A stretch of DNA of 64,000 nucleotides from Acidobacteriota bacterium (GTDB lineage Bacteria; Acidobacteriota; Thermoanaerobaculia; UBA5066; Gp7-AA6), in the NCBI GenBank assembly GCA_020199905.1, contig JAIVJS010000001.1, forward strand, positions 61,069-125,068, in the 5' to 3' direction. A program made the translations under genes and the position numbers. Shown here piece after piece: positions 1-60,852 of the stretch (its first letter is position 1; every line of letters begins with the position of its first letter). The notes below the pieces were generated by a model, which was not told where the DNA came from, made no database searches, and saw nothing but the letters and a program-made list of their open reading frames with translations.

Positions 1-165
1 TATTGAGTTATCCGTCCTCAGTGAGAGTTCTCAGGCCGTGGCCGAAGATGGATTTTCGGCCGCGAAGGCCCTGCCGGCGAAGCAAAAACTGACCACTGAA
101 CACTGAGAACGGAGCACTCTTTCCCCCTTGCCTTTTTGCCTCGGATTTCGTAGAATTCACGTTCC

Positions 166-1029
166 TTGCCCAACCGATTCCGAATCGCCATTTCGGCGGC
201 GCTTTTCTTCATTCTTCTCGGACGCCTCGCCGGAACGCCCTCTGGATTTGCGCCGCTTTCGACGCTGATCGGCACGTCGGGAAAGCTGCGCGCCGTCTTC
301 ACTCTGCCGGGCGAGGTGCCCGTTTCCGAGATTCCCGCGGAGCCCCGCGCGCCCGGCGTGTATGCCATGGACGCGGTCGGAGCGGCAGGAGCGGCGCTGC
401 GGTGGATCGTGATGACCCCCTTCTCCGCCAAGGTCAACGGGCGGATCGGGCCCTACCGGATGGGCCACTGGCCTTTCGAAAACCGCGCCCCCGGCGACCC
501 CGCCTACGCCAGCCCGAGAGGGTTTGTGCAGGTCACACCGGACAACTTCGGCCTGAAGGTTTCGGAGCATTTCGCGCTCGGCCAGTTCGTCACCAAGAAC
601 CAGCCGAACGTGTGGCCCAAGTATGTGGCCCTCCAGCCGCGTCTCCTCGACAAGCTGGAGCTGACGATCGCGGAGTTGAACCGCGAAGGCTATCGGGTGA
701 AGGGTCTCTCCGTGATGAGCGGTTTCCGCACCCCCGATTACAACGAAGAGGGTGTCGGCGCCGGCGGCCGGTCCGCGGTCTCGCGGCACCAGTACGGCGA
801 CGCCGCGGACGTGTATCCGGACGATCTCGGCCGGGGGCGCATGAGCGACCTGAATCGCGACGGCCGCGTGGATCTCAAGGACGCGCACGTTCTCGCCCAC
901 GCCGCCGAGATGGTCGAGCTCTCCCACCCGGAGCTCACCGGTGGAATTGGCATCTACCCGGCGACGTCGGCGCACGGCCCCTTCGTGCACATCGACGCGA
1001 GAGGCAAGCGCGCCCGCTGGGGTGCTTAA
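166..1029 (+). CDS. Peptidase M15 family (D-Ala-D-Ala carboxypeptidase / YcbK-DUF882-like), membrane-anchored or secreted
   Basis: Track ORF with a TTG start; an in-frame TAG at 151 blocks further upstream extension. The N-terminus has a hydrophobic anchor (AISAALFFILLGRLAG). Zn-peptidase motifs SRHQYGDAADV and VHID are present. GC3 is high. Confidence 0.7.
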   Translation: MPNRFRIAISAALFFILLGRLAGTPSGFAPLSTLIGTSGKLRAVFTLPGEVPVSEIPAEPRAPGVYAMDAVGAAGAALRWIVMTPFSAKVNGRIGPYRMGHWPFENRAPGDPAYASPRGFVQVTPDNFGLKVSEHFALGQFVTKNQPNVWPKYVALQPRLLDKLELTIAELNREGYRVKGLSVMSGFRTPDYNEEGVGAGGRSAVSRHQYGDAADVYPDDLGRGRMSDLNRDGRVDLKDAHVLAHAAEMVELSHPELTGGIGIYPATSAHGPFVHIDARGKRARWGA

Positions 1030-3311: not shown

Positions 3312-3374
3312 GCGATCAGACCCGCGGAAGAGGACAACTCCGAGCGAGGCGCGCGGATAGAATCACCGGCGTCT

Positions 3375-3451
3375 GGGGCCGTAGCTCAGGTGGATAGAGC
3401 AAAAGTTTCCTAAACTTTAGGTCGGCGGTTCGAGTCCGCCCGGCCCCACCA
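3375..3451 (+). tRNA. tRNA-Arg (anticodon CCT)
   Basis: Hand-folded cloverleaf: acceptor GGGGCCG/CGGCCCC; D-arm GCTC...GAGC; anticodon stem AAAGT/ACTTT with loop TTCCTAA (anticodon CCT); T-arm GGCGG-TTCGAGT-CCGCC; discriminator A; encoded CCA. Confidence 0.9.
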
Positions 3452-4994: not shown

Positions 4995-5058
4995 GCCGGG
5001 ATTTTACGCCTCCGGCACGTTTCGGGCGCGGAGATCCGTCCCGAATGGCCGCCGAGCG

Positions 5059-47826: not shown

Positions 47827-48852
47827 ATGACCATGCTCGGAAGGGCAAACCCGCTCGAACGGATTTTTCGCGGCGTGCGAGGGAAGCTCTGGCCGGGGCG
47901 CGGCGTGTCCGCTGCGGCGCCGCGCACCGTGCGGGTGATCGCCCACCGCGGCGCGGCTCGGGTGAGAGCGGAGAACACGATCGAGGCGTACGCGGCCGCG
48001 GTCGACCTCGGGGCCGACGGCGTCGAGGCGGACGTCTGCGTCACGCGCGATGGGCGGTTCGTGATCTGGCACGACGCCGACCCGGGCGAGAAGATCGCCC
48101 TCGCGCGGCAGTCGGGACGGGAGGGGCTGCTGTGCACTCCGGACGTTCCGACCCTCGTCTCGAAATGGCGCCGGCGCGTCAAAGACCTCGACTACGAAGA
48201 CTTCCGCACCCACTACGGATACCGCCTGCGGGAGGGGGGCATCGCGGACCTGATCGGCAACGACGACCCGCCGAAGATCCCCGCCGCCACATTCGATGAC
48301 CTGATCGCGTGGGCGGACCGGGAGCCGCGGCTCGCCACGATCTGCCTCGACATCAAGCTGGCGCCCGACCAGACTGATTCGGCCGCGCGGCTCTTCGACC
48401 TTCTGCGGGATCTCTTCGCCGAACGGCGGGACGCGGCCTTTCCGGCCGTCGCGCTCCTGACCCCGCAGCGCGAGATCTTCGAGGCGTTTCAAAGGGAGTC
48501 GGCACGGCATCCCCACGACGACCGGCTCACCGTTCACGCCGACTTCGAGCTCCCTGGCGTGCTGGCCGCAGCGCGGCGCCTGCGATTCCGCCGCGTGAGC
48601 ATGGGAGTCGGACAGCGGTTCTGGCCGGGCTTCCGCGACGAGGTGGCGGACGTCGTGCGGGCGCGGGAGCGCGGAGAGCTCGACGCCGTGATCGTCTGGA
48701 CGCTAAACGAGCCGGACCGGCTGGCCAGACTGGTCGCGTTCGGCGTGGACGGAATCCTCACCGACGAGCCGGCGGCGCTTCGAAAGATGATCTCCGAAGG
48801 CCGCTCCGAGTCGCTGCGCTCTCGCCATTCGGAGGCGCGGGCGCGCAGTTAG
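47827..48852 (+). CDS. Glycerophosphodiester phosphodiesterase family protein
   Basis: GDPD motifs (RVIAHRGAARVRAENTIEAYAAAVDLGADGVEADVCVTRDGRFVIWHD). Confidence 0.8.
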   Translation: MTMLGRANPLERIFRGVRGKLWPGRGVSAAAPRTVRVIAHRGAARVRAENTIEAYAAAVDLGADGVEADVCVTRDGRFVIWHDADPGEKIALARQSGREGLLCTPDVPTLVSKWRRRVKDLDYEDFRTHYGYRLREGGIADLIGNDDPPKIPAATFDDLIAWADREPRLATICLDIKLAPDQTDSAARLFDLLRDLFAERRDAAFPAVALLTPQREIFEAFQRESARHPHDDRLTVHADFELPGVLAAARRLRFRRVSMGVGQRFWPGFRDEVADVVRARERGELDAVIVWTLNEPDRLARLVAFGVDGILTDEPAALRKMISEGRSESLRSRHSEARARS

Positions 48853-48861
48853 AATCCCGCA

Positions 48862-50847
48862 GTGCTCTATCGATTCGATCACGTCCGCAAGGCCTACGGC
48901 TCGAAGGACGTGCTGCGCGACGTCACGTGGCAGCACAACCCGGGTCAGAAGGTCGGTCTCGTCGGCCGCAACGGCGCGGGAAAGACCACTCTTCTTCGAA
49001 TCGCCCTCGGACGCGAGGAGCCGGACTCGGGGCAGTTCGTGCGGGCTAATGCCCTCCGGGTCCAGACCGTCGACCAGGCCTTGAACGCCGACGCGCTCTC
49101 GGAGTCGCTGCACGACTACACTGCCGGCGCGTTCGCCGACCTCCACCGGATCGAATCGGAGATGCGCCGCCTCGAGCACGCGATGGCCGACGGCGACAAT
49201 TCGGCCCCCGTCCACGACCGCTACGACGCCCTGTCGCATCGATTCGAAAACGAGGGCGGCTACGAGATGGTCGCCGAGGTCGAAAAGGCGCTGTCCGGCC
49301 TCGGCTTCGACAAGGCGGACTTCGAGAGGCCGCTCGCCGAGCTCTCCGGGGGCCAGAAGAACCGGGCGATGCTGGCGCGGTCCATCCTGTCCAATCCCGA
49401 CGTCCTGCTGCTCGACGAGCCCACGAACCATCTCGACTTCAACGCCGTGGAGTTCCTGGAGGACTACCTCGCGCGCTCACGCCGCGCGTACCTCGTGGTG
49501 ACGCACGACCGAAGGTTCCTCGACCAGGTCGCCGAGGAGATCATCGATCTCGAGAACGGGCGGCTCTCCGATTACAGCGGCGGGTACAGCTCCTACCGGC
49601 GGCAGAAAGCCGAGCGGATTCTGACCGCGACGCGAGCGTTCGACAAGCAGCAGGAGTTCGTCGAGAAGGAGAAGGAGTACATCCGCCGCAACATCGCGGG
49701 GCAGAACTCCCGTCAGGCGAAGGGGAGGCGGACGAAGCTCGAGCGGGTCGACCTCCTCGAGAGACCGATGGACGACACGACGACGGTCGCGTTCCGTTTC
49801 GACGCGGCGCGGATCGGCGGGAGGAGCTTTCTCCGCACGAAGCACCTGAACGCCGGGTACGAGGCGGGTTTGCCGATCGTCGGGGACGTCAGCTTCGAGC
49901 TTCTTCGAGGCGAGCGGCTCGCGATTCTCGGCGAGAACGGCACCGGCAAGACGACTCTCCTGAAAACGCTCGCGGGACGTCTGCCCGCGCTTTCGGGCTC
50001 CGTAGCCACCGGCCACGACGTCACGATCGGGTACTACGATCAGGAGCTCAGGGACCTCGACCCGAAGGGCCGCGCGATCGACGCGGTGTGGAACCTCAAC
50101 CCGAACGCCACGGAGCAGGCGATGCGGTCCTACCTCGCGCGCTTCGCGTTCCGGGGAGACGAAGTCTTTGCGCAGATCTCGGGCCTGTCGGGCGGCGAGA
50201 AGGGGAGGCTGACCCTCGCCGTCGTGATGATGCAGAGGCACAACCTGCTCCTTCTGGACGAGCCCACGAACCATCTCGACCTCGATTCCCGGGAGGCGCT
50301 GGAAGAGTCGCTCGACGGGTTTCCCGGCTCGATCGTCTTCGTCTCGCACGACCGCGCGTTCATCGACCGGCTCGCGACCCGGGTCCTGGATCTGCGGGCC
50401 GGGCGCGCCGCCGCGATGGACGGCAACTACTCCGAGACGGCCGCCGCCCGCGCCGAGCGGCGGCGCCGTCCCGAGCCCGGGCGCGGCTCTGGCGTCCCCG
50501 CCCCGGCGTTCCCGTCCCCGCGCGGGGCCGCGGCCGCCGCTTCCTCCCGGACCGGGAGCGCCTCGCGTCCCGCGCCGGCCCCCGCCACACACCGGGAGGC
50601 GCCGGATCGGGATAACGGCAGGCGCCGCCGCCGCATCCGGACGCTCGAGGAGAAGATCGCGTCGCTCGAGGCGGCCGTCGATGAGCTGGAGAGCCGACTG
50701 TGGCAGGAGGCCCTGACGCTCGGTCCGGTCGCCTCCCGCGACCTCGCCGCTCAGAAGGCGGCGCGGCAGAAGGAGCTCGATGCGCTGGTCGAGGACTGGG
50801 CGAAGCTGTCGGAGGAAGAGGCGCAGGAGGCGGGCCGCCCGTCGTGA
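48862..50847 (+). CDS. ABC-F family ATPase (tandem ABC domains with C-terminal coiled-coil; Uup/EttA-like)
   Basis: GTG start. Two Walker A sites (GRNGAGKTT; GENGTGKTT), two LSGG signature motifs, and a C-terminal Ala/Arg-rich coiled-coil. Confidence 0.85.
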   Translation: MLYRFDHVRKAYGSKDVLRDVTWQHNPGQKVGLVGRNGAGKTTLLRIALGREEPDSGQFVRANALRVQTVDQALNADALSESLHDYTAGAFADLHRIESEMRRLEHAMADGDNSAPVHDRYDALSHRFENEGGYEMVAEVEKALSGLGFDKADFERPLAELSGGQKNRAMLARSILSNPDVLLLDEPTNHLDFNAVEFLEDYLARSRRAYLVVTHDRRFLDQVAEEIIDLENGRLSDYSGGYSSYRRQKAERILTATRAFDKQQEFVEKEKEYIRRNIAGQNSRQAKGRRTKLERVDLLERPMDDTTTVAFRFDAARIGGRSFLRTKHLNAGYEAGLPIVGDVSFELLRGERLAILGENGTGKTTLLKTLAGRLPALSGSVATGHDVTIGYYDQELRDLDPKGRAIDAVWNLNPNATEQAMRSYLARFAFRGDEVFAQISGLSGGEKGRLTLAVVMMQRHNLLLLDEPTNHLDLDSREALEESLDGFPGSIVFVSHDRAFIDRLATRVLDLRAGRAAAMDGNYSETAAARAERRRRPEPGRGSGVPAPAFPSPRGAAAAASSRTGSASRPAPAPATHREAPDRDNGRRRRRIRTLEEKIASLEAAVDELESRLWQEALTLGPVASRDLAAQKAARQKELDALVEDWAKLSEEEAQEAGRPS

Positions 50848-56724: not shown

Positions 56725-57042
56725 ATGAAGAAGGTATTTGCTCTCTCGCTGGTGGCTGTGCTGTGTCTGGCGGTCGTCGCGGTGGCCGGGGACGACAAGA
56801 TGATGGGCAAGGGAAAGATGGGCGGCGCCAGCGAAGGCACCGTCTCGAAGCTCGACATGGCCGGGAAGATGATGATGGTCAAGGACAGCGCCGGCAAGGA
56901 ATCCACGATCTATTGGAACGATTCCACGAAGGTCGAGGGCGGGGAGCTCAAGGAAGGCGCCCTCGTTAACTACAAGGGCGCGGAGAAGGACGGCAAGATG
57001 TGGGCGACCTGGGTCCACGTCGGCGAAATGAAAAAGATGTGA
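56725..57042 (+). CDS. Small periplasmic Met/Lys-rich protein (possible CusF-like OB-fold metal-binding protein)
   Basis: GAGGAGG 6 nt upstream of the ATG. Signal peptide MKKVFALSLVAVLCLAVVAVAG. Met-rich motifs (KMMGKGKMGG, GKMMMVKD) and conserved Trp (WATWVHV). GC is lower than the surroundings. Confidence 0.6.
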   Translation: MKKVFALSLVAVLCLAVVAVAGDDKMMGKGKMGGASEGTVSKLDMAGKMMMVKDSAGKESTIYWNDSTKVEGGELKEGALVNYKGAEKDGKMWATWVHVGEMKKM

Positions 57043-57056
57043 ATCCGGAGAAAAAA

Positions 57057-57080
57057 GGGCGGCACGGACCGCCCTTTTTT
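57057..57080 (+). terminator. Rho-independent terminator (GGGCGG-cacgga-CCGCCC-TTTTTT)
   Basis: A perfect 6-bp GC stem with a 6-nt loop followed by T6, 15 nt after the stop of the Met-rich protein gene. Confidence 0.75.
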
Positions 57081-57537
57081 CTGTTCTGAGTTCTCAGTCG
57101 TTCCCCCGCATCCGAGGAGCACGGGGTTGAAATCTCACCGTTTCCCCGCGCCGCCCTTCCCCTTTCGCCTCCAGGGGCCATTTGAGTGAAAAATGACCAG
57201 AATTGACGCGCATTCCGACTAGAATTCGCCAACGGCCTCACGACGATTCCTCCCGCGGCGCCTCGTCGCCCTCCTGTTCCTGCTCCTCTCCGGCGGGCCG
57301 CTCTCGCTTCGCGCGGAGCGCAAGACGCCGCCCGGCGCCGCGGCGGCGCAGCGCGAGCCGGAAGCGGAAAGCGAGAAGGAGGACGGCCCCGGGCAGATTC
57401 GCGAACGCGTTCGCCTCTATCTGAAGAGACATTCCGAGAACGGCCGGATCGATCCGGAGCGCCGCCTCGAAAAGGTCGCCGCCGAATACACGCGGTTTCG
57501 GGACGAGGAACGGCGCGGCGGCCGCGCGAGGCTGTCC

Positions 57538-60500
57538 GTGGGAGGCTCGACGTGGGTGTCTCTCGGTCCGACGAACGGCGCGGGCCGCATGACGGGGATC
57601 TCTCCTCACCCGACCGACGTCGGAACCGTGCTCGCCGGAGCGGCGGGCGGGGGAGTCTGGAAGACGACGGACGGCGGGGCGAGCTGGGTTTCGCTGACGG
57701 ATGGTTTGAACGACCTGTCGGTGGGAGCGGTCGCCTACGCGCCGTCCTCACCCAACGTCGTCTACCTCGGAACCGGGGAGGGGAGCTACGCGGTCGACTT
57801 CATCCCCGGGATCGGGCTTCTGAAGTCCACGGACGGGGGCGCCACCTGGACCTTGCCCTCCTCGGTCCTGGCGTCACGCTTCCATCGGATCAACGTGCAC
57901 CCGACGAACCCGAACGAGCTGCTGGTGGGGACGAGCCGCGGAGCGCTGCGATCCACCGACGGCGGGGCGAGCTGGGAGACGGTGATCTCGCCGACCGCTT
58001 ACGGGGACGTTCCGGAGATCCTGCGGGACCCGACCGATCCCCGGAACCTCTTCGCCACCACGTGGTGCATCTCGGGAGGGTGCACGTTCAAGACGGCGCA
58101 CGTCCTGAAGTCGACGGACGGAGGCGCCACCTGGACGGACCGCAGCTTCGGTCTGCCGACCGCGAACCCGTCGGACTTCGCCTACGAGCGCACCGCCCTC
58201 GCGCTCTCTCCTTCGAACACGTCGGTCCTCTACGCCGCGCGATCGGTCCGGCCGGCGGCGGGCACGATCATTTCCCACGTCTACAGGACCGTGGACGGCG
58301 GCGCTACATGGACGGACCTGCCCTCGGTGAGCGCACGGAACAGCCGGTATCTCGCCGACCAGTCCTGGTACAACAACACGATCATCGTCTCTCCAACCGA
58401 CTCCAACACGGTAATCGCCGGCGGGACGAGATACCTGCGCTCGACCGACGGCGGAGCCAACTTCACCCCCGTGCTCGACGGGGAGGTCCACGTGGACGCG
58501 CACGACCTGCGGTACCAGGGATCGACGCTCTGGTTCGCCAATGACGGGGGCGTGTGGACGAGCGTCGACGACGGGATCTCCTCGACCGACCGGAACAACG
58601 GGCTCGTGACGCGCCAGTACTACGCGCTCGCGATCGACCCCATCAACCGCAACCGGATTCTCGCCGGCGCGCAGGACAACGGCACCAATCAGCGGATGGA
58701 CGGGGGAGGGACGGTCTGGCGCCCGGTCATCGGCTCCGACGGCTTCGAGTGCGTCGTGAATCCCTTCTCGCCGGCGATCGCCTGGGGGAGCACGCAGCAG
58801 GGACAGATCTTCCGGAGCCGGAACGTCGGCGCCTCGACGGATCCCTCGTTCCAGTCCGTGACCCCGCCCTACGACGCCAACGAGGAGACACCGTTCCTGA
58901 CGGTCCTCCGCAACGACCCGCGCGCCCCTCAGACGATCTATACCGGCTCTTACCGTCTCTGGCGCTCGCGCGACGGCGGCACCGTGTGGGTCCCCCTCCC
59001 CACGACGACCACAGACGGCTCGGCCTGGCCCAGGTCCACGACCGTGACGTCGCTGGCGCTCTCGCGCACGGATCCTCTTCTGATCCTGGTCGGCAAGGAA
59101 AACGGCATCTACCGGTCCGGTGACGGAGGCCAGACCTGGACACCGGCGACCGGAGTTCCGGATCGGGTGCTGACCAATCTCGAGATCGACCCGACCAACT
59201 CCGGCATCGCCTACGCCACCTTCTCCGCGATCACCTTGCCGAGCGTGTACCGGAGCGTCGACGGCGGGTTGACCTGGGCGCCGAGCGCGTCCGGCCTTCC
59301 GGCATTTCCCTCGCAGGTGATCCGCGTCGATCCGACCGATTCCAACGTCGTGTTCGTCGGCACCGACGTCGGCGTCTTCCGTTCGCCGGACCGGGGGGCG
59401 ACGTGGAGCCGTTTCGGCACAGGCCTTCCGAGCTCCTCGGTCCACGACCTGCAGGTGCTGGACGACGGTTCCATGCTCCGTGTCGCGACGCACGGGCGCG
59501 GAATCTGGGAGCTGCAGGTGCCGGCGACCGGAAACAATCCGCCCGTCCCGACCGTCGTCGCTCCCGCGTCGTCGATCGCCGTCCCGCTCGGAACGACGGT
59601 GTCCTTCTCCGGGACGGTGACGGATCCGGATCCTGGAGACACCGCCTCCGGAACCTGGTTCTTCCCGGACACGTCCGAGAACATCCCGCTGCCGGGCGGG
59701 GCGGGCACGGTGGCACACACGTTCCGGCGTGCGGGCTCCTTCCCGGTCGCGCTCTCGGCTCGCGATTCCCGCGGCGCTCTCGGCACCGCCGTCGTTCAGG
59801 TGTCCGTGACGGACAGCGGAGACGCGTGCGCGACGCCGGTCGTGATCCCATCCAACGGTCCCTTCCCGTACGCCGTCCTCGCCAGCAGCGAGTCCGCGAC
59901 GACGGAGGCAACGGATCCTTCGCCCTCGTGCTGGGTGAGCGCCAAGGCGGCGTCGCTCTGGTTCGAGTACACGCCCCCGGCCGACGGCCAGTATGAGATC
60001 TCGACGTGCGGGAGCGCACCCGACACCGTTCTCTCCGTTTTCACCGGCGCCGCGTGCGGTCCGTACACGCCCGTTTCCGGCGGGTGCAATGACGACGCCC
60101 CCGCGTCCTCCGGATGCGGAACACAGGCTTCCCTCGTGACCGTGACCGGCAGGGCGGGACAGACGTTCCGGATCCAGGCCACCGGTTTCGATGAGTCCAG
60201 TCTCGGCTCGTTCGCCCTGAACGTGAGGCCGATTTCCGTGCCGGCGTCTTCGCCCCGGGTCGGCGGAGTGAACGCCGGCGAGGGTCCGGCGCCCGGCGGG
60301 ACCACGGTGCTGATCACGGGCAGCGGATTCCAGAACGATGCCACGGTCTCTTTCGGCGGCGTCGCGGGCACCGACGTCGTCGTCCTCGCGCCGACGCTTC
60401 TCTCCGTGCGAACGCCGGCGCACGCGCCCGGAGACGTGGACGTCTCGGTGACCTCGGGCGGCGGGACCGGGACGCTCTCCCGCGCGTTCGCGTTCACCCC

Positions 60501-60852
60501 GTACACCCCGGTGGCCTGCGCGCCGGGCGATTCGACGCTCTGCATGAACGGCGGCCGCTTTCGCGCTCAGGTCGTCTGGCGTGTTCCGACGCAGAACGCG
60601 GCCGGCCTCGCCTCGGCGGTCGCCCTGACCGGCGATACGGGCTATTTCTGGTTCTTCTCGTCGAACAACATCGAGCTCGTCGTGAAAGTCGTCGACGGCC
60701 GAGGCTTCAATGGCAAATTCTGGGTGTTCTACGGCGCTCTCTCGAACGTGGAGTACACCCTGACCGTCACGGACATCGTGACGGGAGCGGTCCGCGTCTA
60801 CACGAATCCCAGCGGGTTACTGTCGAGCGTCGCGGACACCTCCGCGTTCTAG
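57538..60852 (+). CDS. Large extracellular multidomain protein: about 10 BNR/Asp-box (SxDxGxTW) repeats, PKD domain, PPC-like domain, IPT/TIG domain, and a conserved C-terminal domain of unknown function
   Basis: Repeated TTDGGASW / STDGGATW / TVDGGATW motifs. PKD-like VTDPDPGDTASGTWFFPD...GSFPVALSARDSRGALG. IPT-like TTVLITGSGFQNDATVSFGGVAGTDVVVLAPTLLSVRTPAHAPGDVDVSV. The track start is GTG 57538. An in-frame ATG (57193) and a Tat-like signal peptide lie upstream, separated from the ORF by a TAG at 57220-57222 (see findings). Confidence 0.8.
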   Translation: MGGSTWVSLGPTNGAGRMTGISPHPTDVGTVLAGAAGGGVWKTTDGGASWVSLTDGLNDLSVGAVAYAPSSPNVVYLGTGEGSYAVDFIPGIGLLKSTDGGATWTLPSSVLASRFHRINVHPTNPNELLVGTSRGALRSTDGGASWETVISPTAYGDVPEILRDPTDPRNLFATTWCISGGCTFKTAHVLKSTDGGATWTDRSFGLPTANPSDFAYERTALALSPSNTSVLYAARSVRPAAGTIISHVYRTVDGGATWTDLPSVSARNSRYLADQSWYNNTIIVSPTDSNTVIAGGTRYLRSTDGGANFTPVLDGEVHVDAHDLRYQGSTLWFANDGGVWTSVDDGISSTDRNNGLVTRQYYALAIDPINRNRILAGAQDNGTNQRMDGGGTVWRPVIGSDGFECVVNPFSPAIAWGSTQQGQIFRSRNVGASTDPSFQSVTPPYDANEETPFLTVLRNDPRAPQTIYTGSYRLWRSRDGGTVWVPLPTTTTDGSAWPRSTTVTSLALSRTDPLLILVGKENGIYRSGDGGQTWTPATGVPDRVLTNLEIDPTNSGIAYATFSAITLPSVYRSVDGGLTWAPSASGLPAFPSQVIRVDPTDSNVVFVGTDVGVFRSPDRGATWSRFGTGLPSSSVHDLQVLDDGSMLRVATHGRGIWELQVPATGNNPPVPTVVAPASSIAVPLGTTVSFSGTVTDPDPGDTASGTWFFPDTSENIPLPGGAGTVAHTFRRAGSFPVALSARDSRGALGTAVVQVSVTDSGDACATPVVIPSNGPFPYAVLASSESATTEATDPSPSCWVSAKAASLWFEYTPPADGQYEISTCGSAPDTVLSVFTGAACGPYTPVSGGCNDDAPASSGCGTQASLVTVTGRAGQTFRIQATGFDESSLGSFALNVRPISVPASSPRVGGVNAGEGPAPGGTTVLITGSGFQNDATVSFGGVAGTDVVVLAPTLLSVRTPAHAPGDVDVSVTSGGGTGTLSRAFAFTPYTPVACAPGDSTLCMNGGRFRAQVVWRVPTQNAAGLASAVALTGDTGYFWFFSSNNIELVVKVVDGRGFNGKFWVFYGALSNVEYTLTVTDIVTGAVRVYTNPSGLLSSVADTSAF

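Follow-up and report, generated by a model that had tools for sequence, protein, structure and literature searches.

In a window of 64,000 nucleotides (nt; the whole stretch of DNA analysed here) on contig JAIVJS010000001.1 of an Acidobacteriota bacterium from the class Thermoanaerobaculia, a large open reading frame (ORF) for a secreted multidomain protein seems to carry an in-frame amber codon, TAG, between an ATG and the sequence of its signal peptide. Comparison with orthologous loci suggests that this TAG is the first half of a promoter -10 box, TAGAAT, and that the gene would be transcribed into a leaderless messenger RNA (mRNA) from about A57232 and translated from a conserved ACG. We give this combined reading a probability of roughly 0.55. 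Concerning its parts, TAGAAT at 57220–57225 is very probably a functional -10 box, judging from its sequence and placement, and the odds that the ACG serves as the initiation codon appear to be about even. What the first-pass annotation had interpreted as a stop codon lying within the gene is most probably an ordinary feature, a -10 box misread as a codon. The features of the locus are as follows.

57193–57219, plus strand: ATG and eight codons (MTRIDAHSD); promoter-proximal DNA in which coding is not conserved, outside the gene
57220–57225, plus strand: TAGAAT, proposed -10 hexamer, whose first three bases are the "amber codon"; C-TA(G/C)AAT in 12 of 12 loci
57232–57234, plus strand: invariant in-frame ACG, proposed non-canonical initiation codon; A57232 is the predicted transcription start
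57232–57315, plus strand: putative signal-peptide coding part, (M/T)ASRRFLPRRLVALLFLLLSGGPLSLRA, then ERK
57316–57537, plus strand: conserved N-terminal region, IRERVRLYLKRHSENGRIDPERRLEKVAAEY, left out of the public gene call
57538–57540, plus strand: GTG, the public start (P0001, 1104 amino acids (aa), 100% identical), read here as an internal Val
57232–60852, plus strand: proposed full coding sequence, 1206 codons and a TAG stop, for a secreted protein with a BNR/Sortilin-Vps10-like propeller and PKD and IPT/TIG domains

Direct reading of the sequence confirmed the layout from which the first-pass annotation had started. ATG 57193–57195 opens the peptide MTRIDAHSD, which ends at TAG 57220–57222, and it shares its frame with the large ORF (57193 and 57538 both fall on position 1 modulo 3). 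Without a further stop, that frame runs from 57223 as far as TAG 60850–60852, a total of 1209 codons, and GTG 57538 is the earliest in-frame ATG, GTG or TTG after the TAG. The stretch immediately following the TAG, NSPTASRRFLPRRLVALLFLLLSGGPLSLRAERK, has the layout of a signal peptide.

To place these features in an evolutionary context, we compared 12 loci, namely the window and the DNA of eleven further orthologous loci. Where the flanks suffice, the order of genes is the same, with an amino-acid permease on the minus strand followed by a gene of about 104 aa and the large gene, both on the plus strand. An in-frame TAG stands at the identical place in four of the orthologs (L001, L002, L003 and L165), which come from independent assemblies and share 63–82% protein identity, and in each of them it is followed by N-x-x-T and the signal peptide. 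Given this recurrence, the arrangement of in-frame TAG and signal peptide is not due to chance. The hexamer itself is more widely conserved than the stop codon, with C-TA(G/C)AAT at the corresponding place in all 12 loci, in the form TACAAT in L164, L171 and L172. The first-pass annotation had proposed to look for a sense codon at this position in orthologs; what we found was TAG in frame in five loci and the same hexamer out of frame in seven, where it reads as P-T-I or A-R-I. The distance from the box to the first codon is 6 nt in the five and 7 nt in the seven, and the TAG falls in frame because of the 6-nt spacing (TAG AAT NNN NNN ACG). Since the hexamer is kept in two frames, it is a DNA signal (TAGAAT/TACAAT) and not a codon. 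An in-frame stop just ahead of a conserved N-terminus deserves to be recognised as the normal footprint of a leaderless promoter, produced by the TAG or TAA of a TAnnnT box at 6-nt spacing.

Three explanations had been offered earlier for the TAG: a recent nonsense mutation leaving a pseudogene, a sequencing error, and stop-codon readthrough. On the sequences compared, the TAG is not a sequencing error, a recent nonsense mutation or a product of readthrough from ATG 57193. A recent lesion, or an error of sequencing or assembly, is scarcely credible. It would account for a stop between the ATG and the signal peptide and for nothing further, whereas the same TAG is common to the window and its four orthologs in five independent assemblies, and divergence over the whole ORF reaches about 0.45 per site at third codon positions versus 0.09–0.16 at positions 1 and 2, indicating purifying selection. 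A missing canonical start is, moreover, not peculiar to this sequence, as at least 16 of the listed calls from the window's clade and near relatives begin at varying internal starts and have no signal peptide.

Initiation at ATG 57193 with the TAG read through or recoded, whether by amber suppression or by decoding of the pyrrolysine type, has an equally negligible probability. The likeness to programmed readthrough lies in an in-frame TAG between an ATG and a functional ORF, and the window, taken by itself, does have both the ATG and the TAG in the ORF frame. The start proposed there is not conserved in frame among the orthologs, its counterpart being out of frame in L001 (a 2-nt indel), CTG in L002 and absent in L165, and in these three loci the interval from the preceding in-frame stop to the TAG holds no start codon at all. 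The case also differs from known recoding in that the peptide upstream of the TAG shows no conservation, 7 of 12 loci carry the motif out of frame, and TAG is an ordinary stop here, ending the large gene at a C-terminus common to all orthologs and ending several neighbouring genes as well. The same two uses of TAG as a terminator rule out its reassignment. A frameshift from an upstream start in another frame was likewise considered and ruled out: the frame of the ATG differs between the window and L001/L002 through the 2-nt indel, the alternative frame of the window contains a TGA, and a TTG at 57203 is not conserved.

The position and sequence of the hexamer are those expected of a leaderless promoter. 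TAGAAT matches the -10 consensus TAnAAT, and its first T lies 12 nt before the first codon at 57232, in agreement with the TANNNT rule for leaderless genes; this arrangement is kept in 12 of 12 orthologs. The 12 nt preceding the ACG are TAGAATTCGCCA, and there is no GGAGG-like run within 30 nt upstream, which leaves neither a Shine-Dalgarno sequence nor space to fit one. From the spacing, transcription would begin near A57232, which is the 7th nt past the box. Leaderless genes with a TANNNT box are known in Actinobacteria and Deinococcus-Thermus (PMC3160421, PMC4007540, PMC4633059), and those with the box about 12 nt before the start have been predicted to make up 10–19% of genes in three Acidobacteria genomes (PMC3160421). 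The large gene resembles them in the 12-nt distance to the first T, in the lack of a Shine-Dalgarno sequence and in the A at the predicted +1, and several other genes in the window share the box geometry and begin with GTG. It differs from them in its +1 codon, which is ACG, where known leaderless mRNAs start with AUG or GUG and rarely with UUG. The other boxes of this type in the window are listed below.

48850–48864, plus strand: TAGAAT at 48850, 6 nt before GTG 48862 of an ABC-F ATPase (Pfam domain from residue 18)
5904–5890, minus strand: TAACAT, 6 nt before GTG 5892 of a short-chain dehydrogenase (Pfam domain from residue 5)
5006–4992, minus strand: TAAAAT at 5006, 6 nt before GTG 4994 of a gene with a lipobox-like N-terminus
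8910–8895, minus strand: TAGCAT, 7 nt before GTG 8897 of a gene with no family match
151–168, plus strand: TAGAAT at 151, 9 nt before TTG 166 of a gene with leaderless-like geometry
3358, plus strand: TAGAAT, 11 nt before tRNA-Arg CCT (3375–3451), the only tRNA gene in the window

The genes headed by these boxes start at the first canonical start of their ORF after the box, and in three of them the ORF is bounded by an in-frame stop that belongs to the box itself, its TAG or TAA, as at 57220. A TAnnnT box 6–7 nt before the first start is found in 4 of 38 window ORFs, compared to 0.5% of all start-like triplets (P ~4e-5). Four of the five copies of TAGAAT in the window are start-proximal, 6–11 nt before the start of a gene or tRNA, and the copy at 3358 is likely the promoter of the tRNA-Arg gene with the same -10 box.

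Conservation at the position of the start codon is a further line of evidence. Eight loci (the window, L001–L003, L165, L164, L171 and L172) have no ATG, GTG or TTG between the box and the hydrophobic core, and all eight have an in-frame ACG whose first base is the 7th or 8th nt past the box. The remaining four have a TTG instead, in L170 directly after the box and 7 nt, and in L167, L168 and L169 after the box, 7 nt and ACC; in two of these four, gene callers independently picked the TTG as the start. In a MAFFT alignment the ACG (Thr) and TTG (Leu) share column 1, and the proteins counted from that column are 1193–1209 aa long. Among 38 columns with invariant Thr, the ACG column is the sole one with a single codon in all eight loci, and among the 2973 ACG triplets of the window, ACG 57232 is the sole one with a TAnnnT box 6–7 nt upstream. 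The ACG occurs in three lineages and the TTG in two on a neighbour-joining tree drawn without bootstrap; parsimony on this unbootstrapped tree suggests that ACG is ancestral and has been long retained. That a lineage of Acidobacteriota (Thermoanaerobaculia) has kept, through divergence down to about 60% protein identity, a leaderless, 5'-terminal start at ACG, a codon taken to be inactive in leaderless initiation in E. coli, mycobacteria and mitochondria, is a tentative proposal, to which we assign somewhat less than even odds.

The codons that follow show a further peculiarity. The first 28 (57232–57315) are unusually conserved at the nucleotide level, with a third-position divergence of 0.21 versus about 0.45 elsewhere, and identical codons in all eight loci are seen in 3 of 6 invariant-residue columns there, versus 8 of 311 over the remaining gene. 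A search for RNA structure at the 5' end found that the first 50 nt fold like shuffled sequences (z = 0.2).

Several observations weigh against the combined reading. A sigma-70 promoter scan that required both hexamers matched no promoter here, the loci compared have no convincing conserved -35 element, and we infer the promoter from its consensus and position only. ATG 57193 and its surroundings make a doubtful -35 element, with a distance to the box that varies (21, 19 and 19 nt for members of the window's clade and 11 nt in L171). The lack of a conserved -35 element would be consistent with TAGAAT having been kept for some other reason, for example as the site of a regulator, with the mRNA arriving from farther upstream, by read-through of the terminator of the small upstream gene or from another promoter, and with initiation at or near the ACG independent of a Shine-Dalgarno sequence. 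Two further features would fit such an arrangement: the inverted repeats ATTC-N6-GAAT around the box in the window's clade, and an in-frame ATG retained upstream of the box in two loci. We nevertheless regard it as unlikely, since the same type of box stands at the same distance from unrelated genes and a tRNA in the window, the sequence farther upstream of the box differs between clades, and the box of L167 lies only 5 nt past the T-run of the upstream terminator. The repeats themselves are found in the window's clade only, as GAAT-N8-ATTC-N6-GAAT in the window (57200–57227) and GGAAT-N5-ATTCC-N5-GAAT in L001 (about 1397–1424), and could be an operator.

The two loci just mentioned, L171 (1501–1533) and L172 (1169–1201), have their in-frame ATG 10 codons before the ACG, upstream of TACAAT, and it could be the real start there. 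Gene callers take it as such; neither a Shine-Dalgarno sequence nor a separate box accompanies it. The large gene is also the only case of a box-headed ACG within the 64-kb window, and its first 60 nt contain no ATG, GTG or TTG in any frame, and thus nothing corresponding to the RTG expected of leaderless genes. Finally, the first 28 codons have no excess of divergence at third positions over first and second positions. Therefore, translation from the ACG to the conserved PRR is deduced from homology and constant length, and not from the pattern of substitution.

Experimental knowledge of initiation codons points in the same unfavourable direction. Near-cognate, non-canonical start codons do occur in bacteria, as in the AUU of infC, and we are aware of no natural gene in bacteria for which a start at ACG has been documented. 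The present case resembles infC and the ACG reporters studied in Escherichia coli in that ACG is one base from AUG, but those starts are led by a Shine-Dalgarno sequence. In such E. coli reporters, ACG initiates weakly and yields N-terminal Met and some Thr (bioRxiv 10.1101/063800). For leaderless mRNAs, an ATG or GTG at +1 was described as "necessary and sufficient" in mycobacteria (PMC4633059), a strong preference for AUG was found in Caulobacter and E. coli (PMC8459731), and ACG had the role of a negative control in the reconstituted systems from E. coli and mitochondria (PMC11775629).

The very poor performance of ACG as an initiator in model systems (PMC11775629, PMC4633059) would favour a start farther downstream, with the promoter and the short or absent leader being real. 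Candidates are a non-canonical codon such as CTG 57280, which is codon-invariant in the eight ACG-type loci, or GTG 57538, with a product lacking the signal peptide altogether. We consider this improbable. A start at CTG 57280 would cut away half of the hydrophobic core together with the basic n-region of a signal peptide whose whole layout is conserved, the GTG is not conserved (GTC in orthologs) and lies behind a region, 57316–57537, that evolves as coding sequence, neither codon is preceded by a Shine-Dalgarno-like sequence, and the orthologs of the TTG type begin in the ACG column.

A less likely variant of initiation at the ACG would be C-to-U editing, by which the codon becomes AUG in the RNA and the mRNA a normal leaderless one. 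A conserved genomic ACG at the start of an otherwise intact and conserved gene is the hallmark of editing sites in plant organelles, where the ACG start codons of some genes are restored to AUG by a process that depends on PPR proteins, and this likeness is its sole support. Those systems, however, are organellar and PPR-dependent, we know of no C-to-U mRNA editing system in bacteria, and nothing in the window pointed to one, although no specific search was made; the probability of editing is accordingly minimal.

The protein extends well upstream of its annotated start. The first-pass annotation had counted the signal peptide and some 100 codons ahead of GTG 57538 as part of the protein, and this was upheld by the alignment of homolog N-termini and by coding-type divergence in 57316–57537. 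In comparisons with the three closest orthologs, the first, second and third codon positions of this region diverge by 0.19, 0.24 and 0.53 per site, and the remainder of the gene has the same pattern, with 0.16, 0.09 and 0.45. The region also contains the motif (I/V)RxRxxLYLxRHGxxGRIDPE, which distant homologs with ATG starts carry after their signal peptide and which is kept in homologs down to about 45% identity. On these comparisons, 57316–57537 is part of the protein-coding region. Coding-type divergence and the alignment of homologs together show that the annotated start is too far downstream, and that about 102 N-terminal residues are missing. Close relatives fetched as DNA have other codons (GTC) at the position of GTG 57538, and in these the callers picked other internal starts.

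The layout of the signal peptide is retained throughout the 12 orthologs and the wider family: a basic n-region with its conserved PRR comes first, then a hydrophobic core, and L-R-A stands ahead of a break. By eye this layout would fit the Sec type (RRFLPRR, then LVALLFLLLSGGPLSL, then RA followed by the break and E). It had been labelled as Tat-type, a label that does not hold. Searches for a Tat signal in Pfam and NCBIfam gave no match even at E<=1, SRRFLP lacks the x position of the Tat consensus (S/T)-R-R-x-F-L-K, and orthologs do not share the SRRFL motif. Its first RR is replaced in L001 (SLRS) and L002 (SPRP), and only the PRR and the hydrophobic residues are kept. Judged on its residues, the signal peptide is more likely of the Sec type than of the Tat type.

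Taken together, these features allow us to postulate a course of expression for the large gene. Transcription from the TAGAAT promoter would give a leaderless or nearly leaderless mRNA with its 5' end at about A57232. Translation would begin at the 5'-terminal ACG 57232–57234, presumably read by the initiator tRNA as a weak near-cognate start, to give a product beginning MASRRFLPRR…, in which the putative signal peptide MASRRFLPRRLVALLFLLLSGGPLSLRA precedes ERK…. The protein would then be exported via this Sec-type signal peptide and cleaved, leaving a mature N-terminus of ERKTPPG… (ERKTPPGAAAAQR). If the ACG does initiate, nature would provide here an exception, stable over evolution, to the requirement of leaderless mRNAs for a 5' AUG or GUG, and one could test, in a phylum that has received little study, how stringently leaderless (70S-type) initiation selects its start codon. 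Such an ACG start could reflect a relaxed start-codon requirement for leaderless initiation in the phylum, or a deliberate design for very low expression.

A practical consequence concerns annotation. Gene callers cannot accept a non-canonical start, and public annotation consequently removes the signal peptide from the whole ortholog group, with proteins of 1104, 1087, 1161 and 1174 aa versus about 1200 aa from the first column of the alignment; predictions of localisation for the group are wrong for this reason. The calls of 1104 and 1087 aa are short by about 102–119 N-terminal residues. The protein is a member of a very large family of secreted proteins, and scans of metagenomes and genomes for closer orthologs were swamped by common propeller peptides, yielding only distant homologs with ordinary ATG starts.

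At the other end of the protein, Pfam assigned the BNR/Sortilin-Vps10-like propeller, PKD and IPT/TIG domains, and the C-terminal region that follows the IPT/TIG domain (about 60500–60849, residues about 1090–1206; GYFWFFSSNNIELVVKVVDGRGFNGKFWVFYGALSNVEYTLTVTD) is conserved and has no Pfam match.

The gene immediately upstream is separated from the promoter of the large gene by an intrinsic terminator, as follows.

57057–57080, plus strand: intrinsic terminator of the 105-aa gene, with stem GGGCGG/CCGCCC, loop CACGGA and then TTTTTT

An equivalent GC hairpin and T-run is present in 11 of 12 loci; in the remaining one, L003, the sequence begins only 31 nt upstream of the box. The terminator was missed by a consensus scan for terminators and promoters, and an Rfam search of 56900–57700 gave only sub-threshold matches, which fall on this terminator (PrrB/RsmZ, 25 bits versus a gathering score of 44). 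The 105-aa ORF itself (56725–57042, plus strand) matched no Pfam or NCBIfam family; its N-terminus resembles a signal peptide, and it has a Shine-Dalgarno sequence as well as a terminator of its own. In all loci whose flank is long enough, this ORF immediately precedes the large gene, its C-terminus VHVGEMKKM is conserved, and its product may act functionally together with the large protein.

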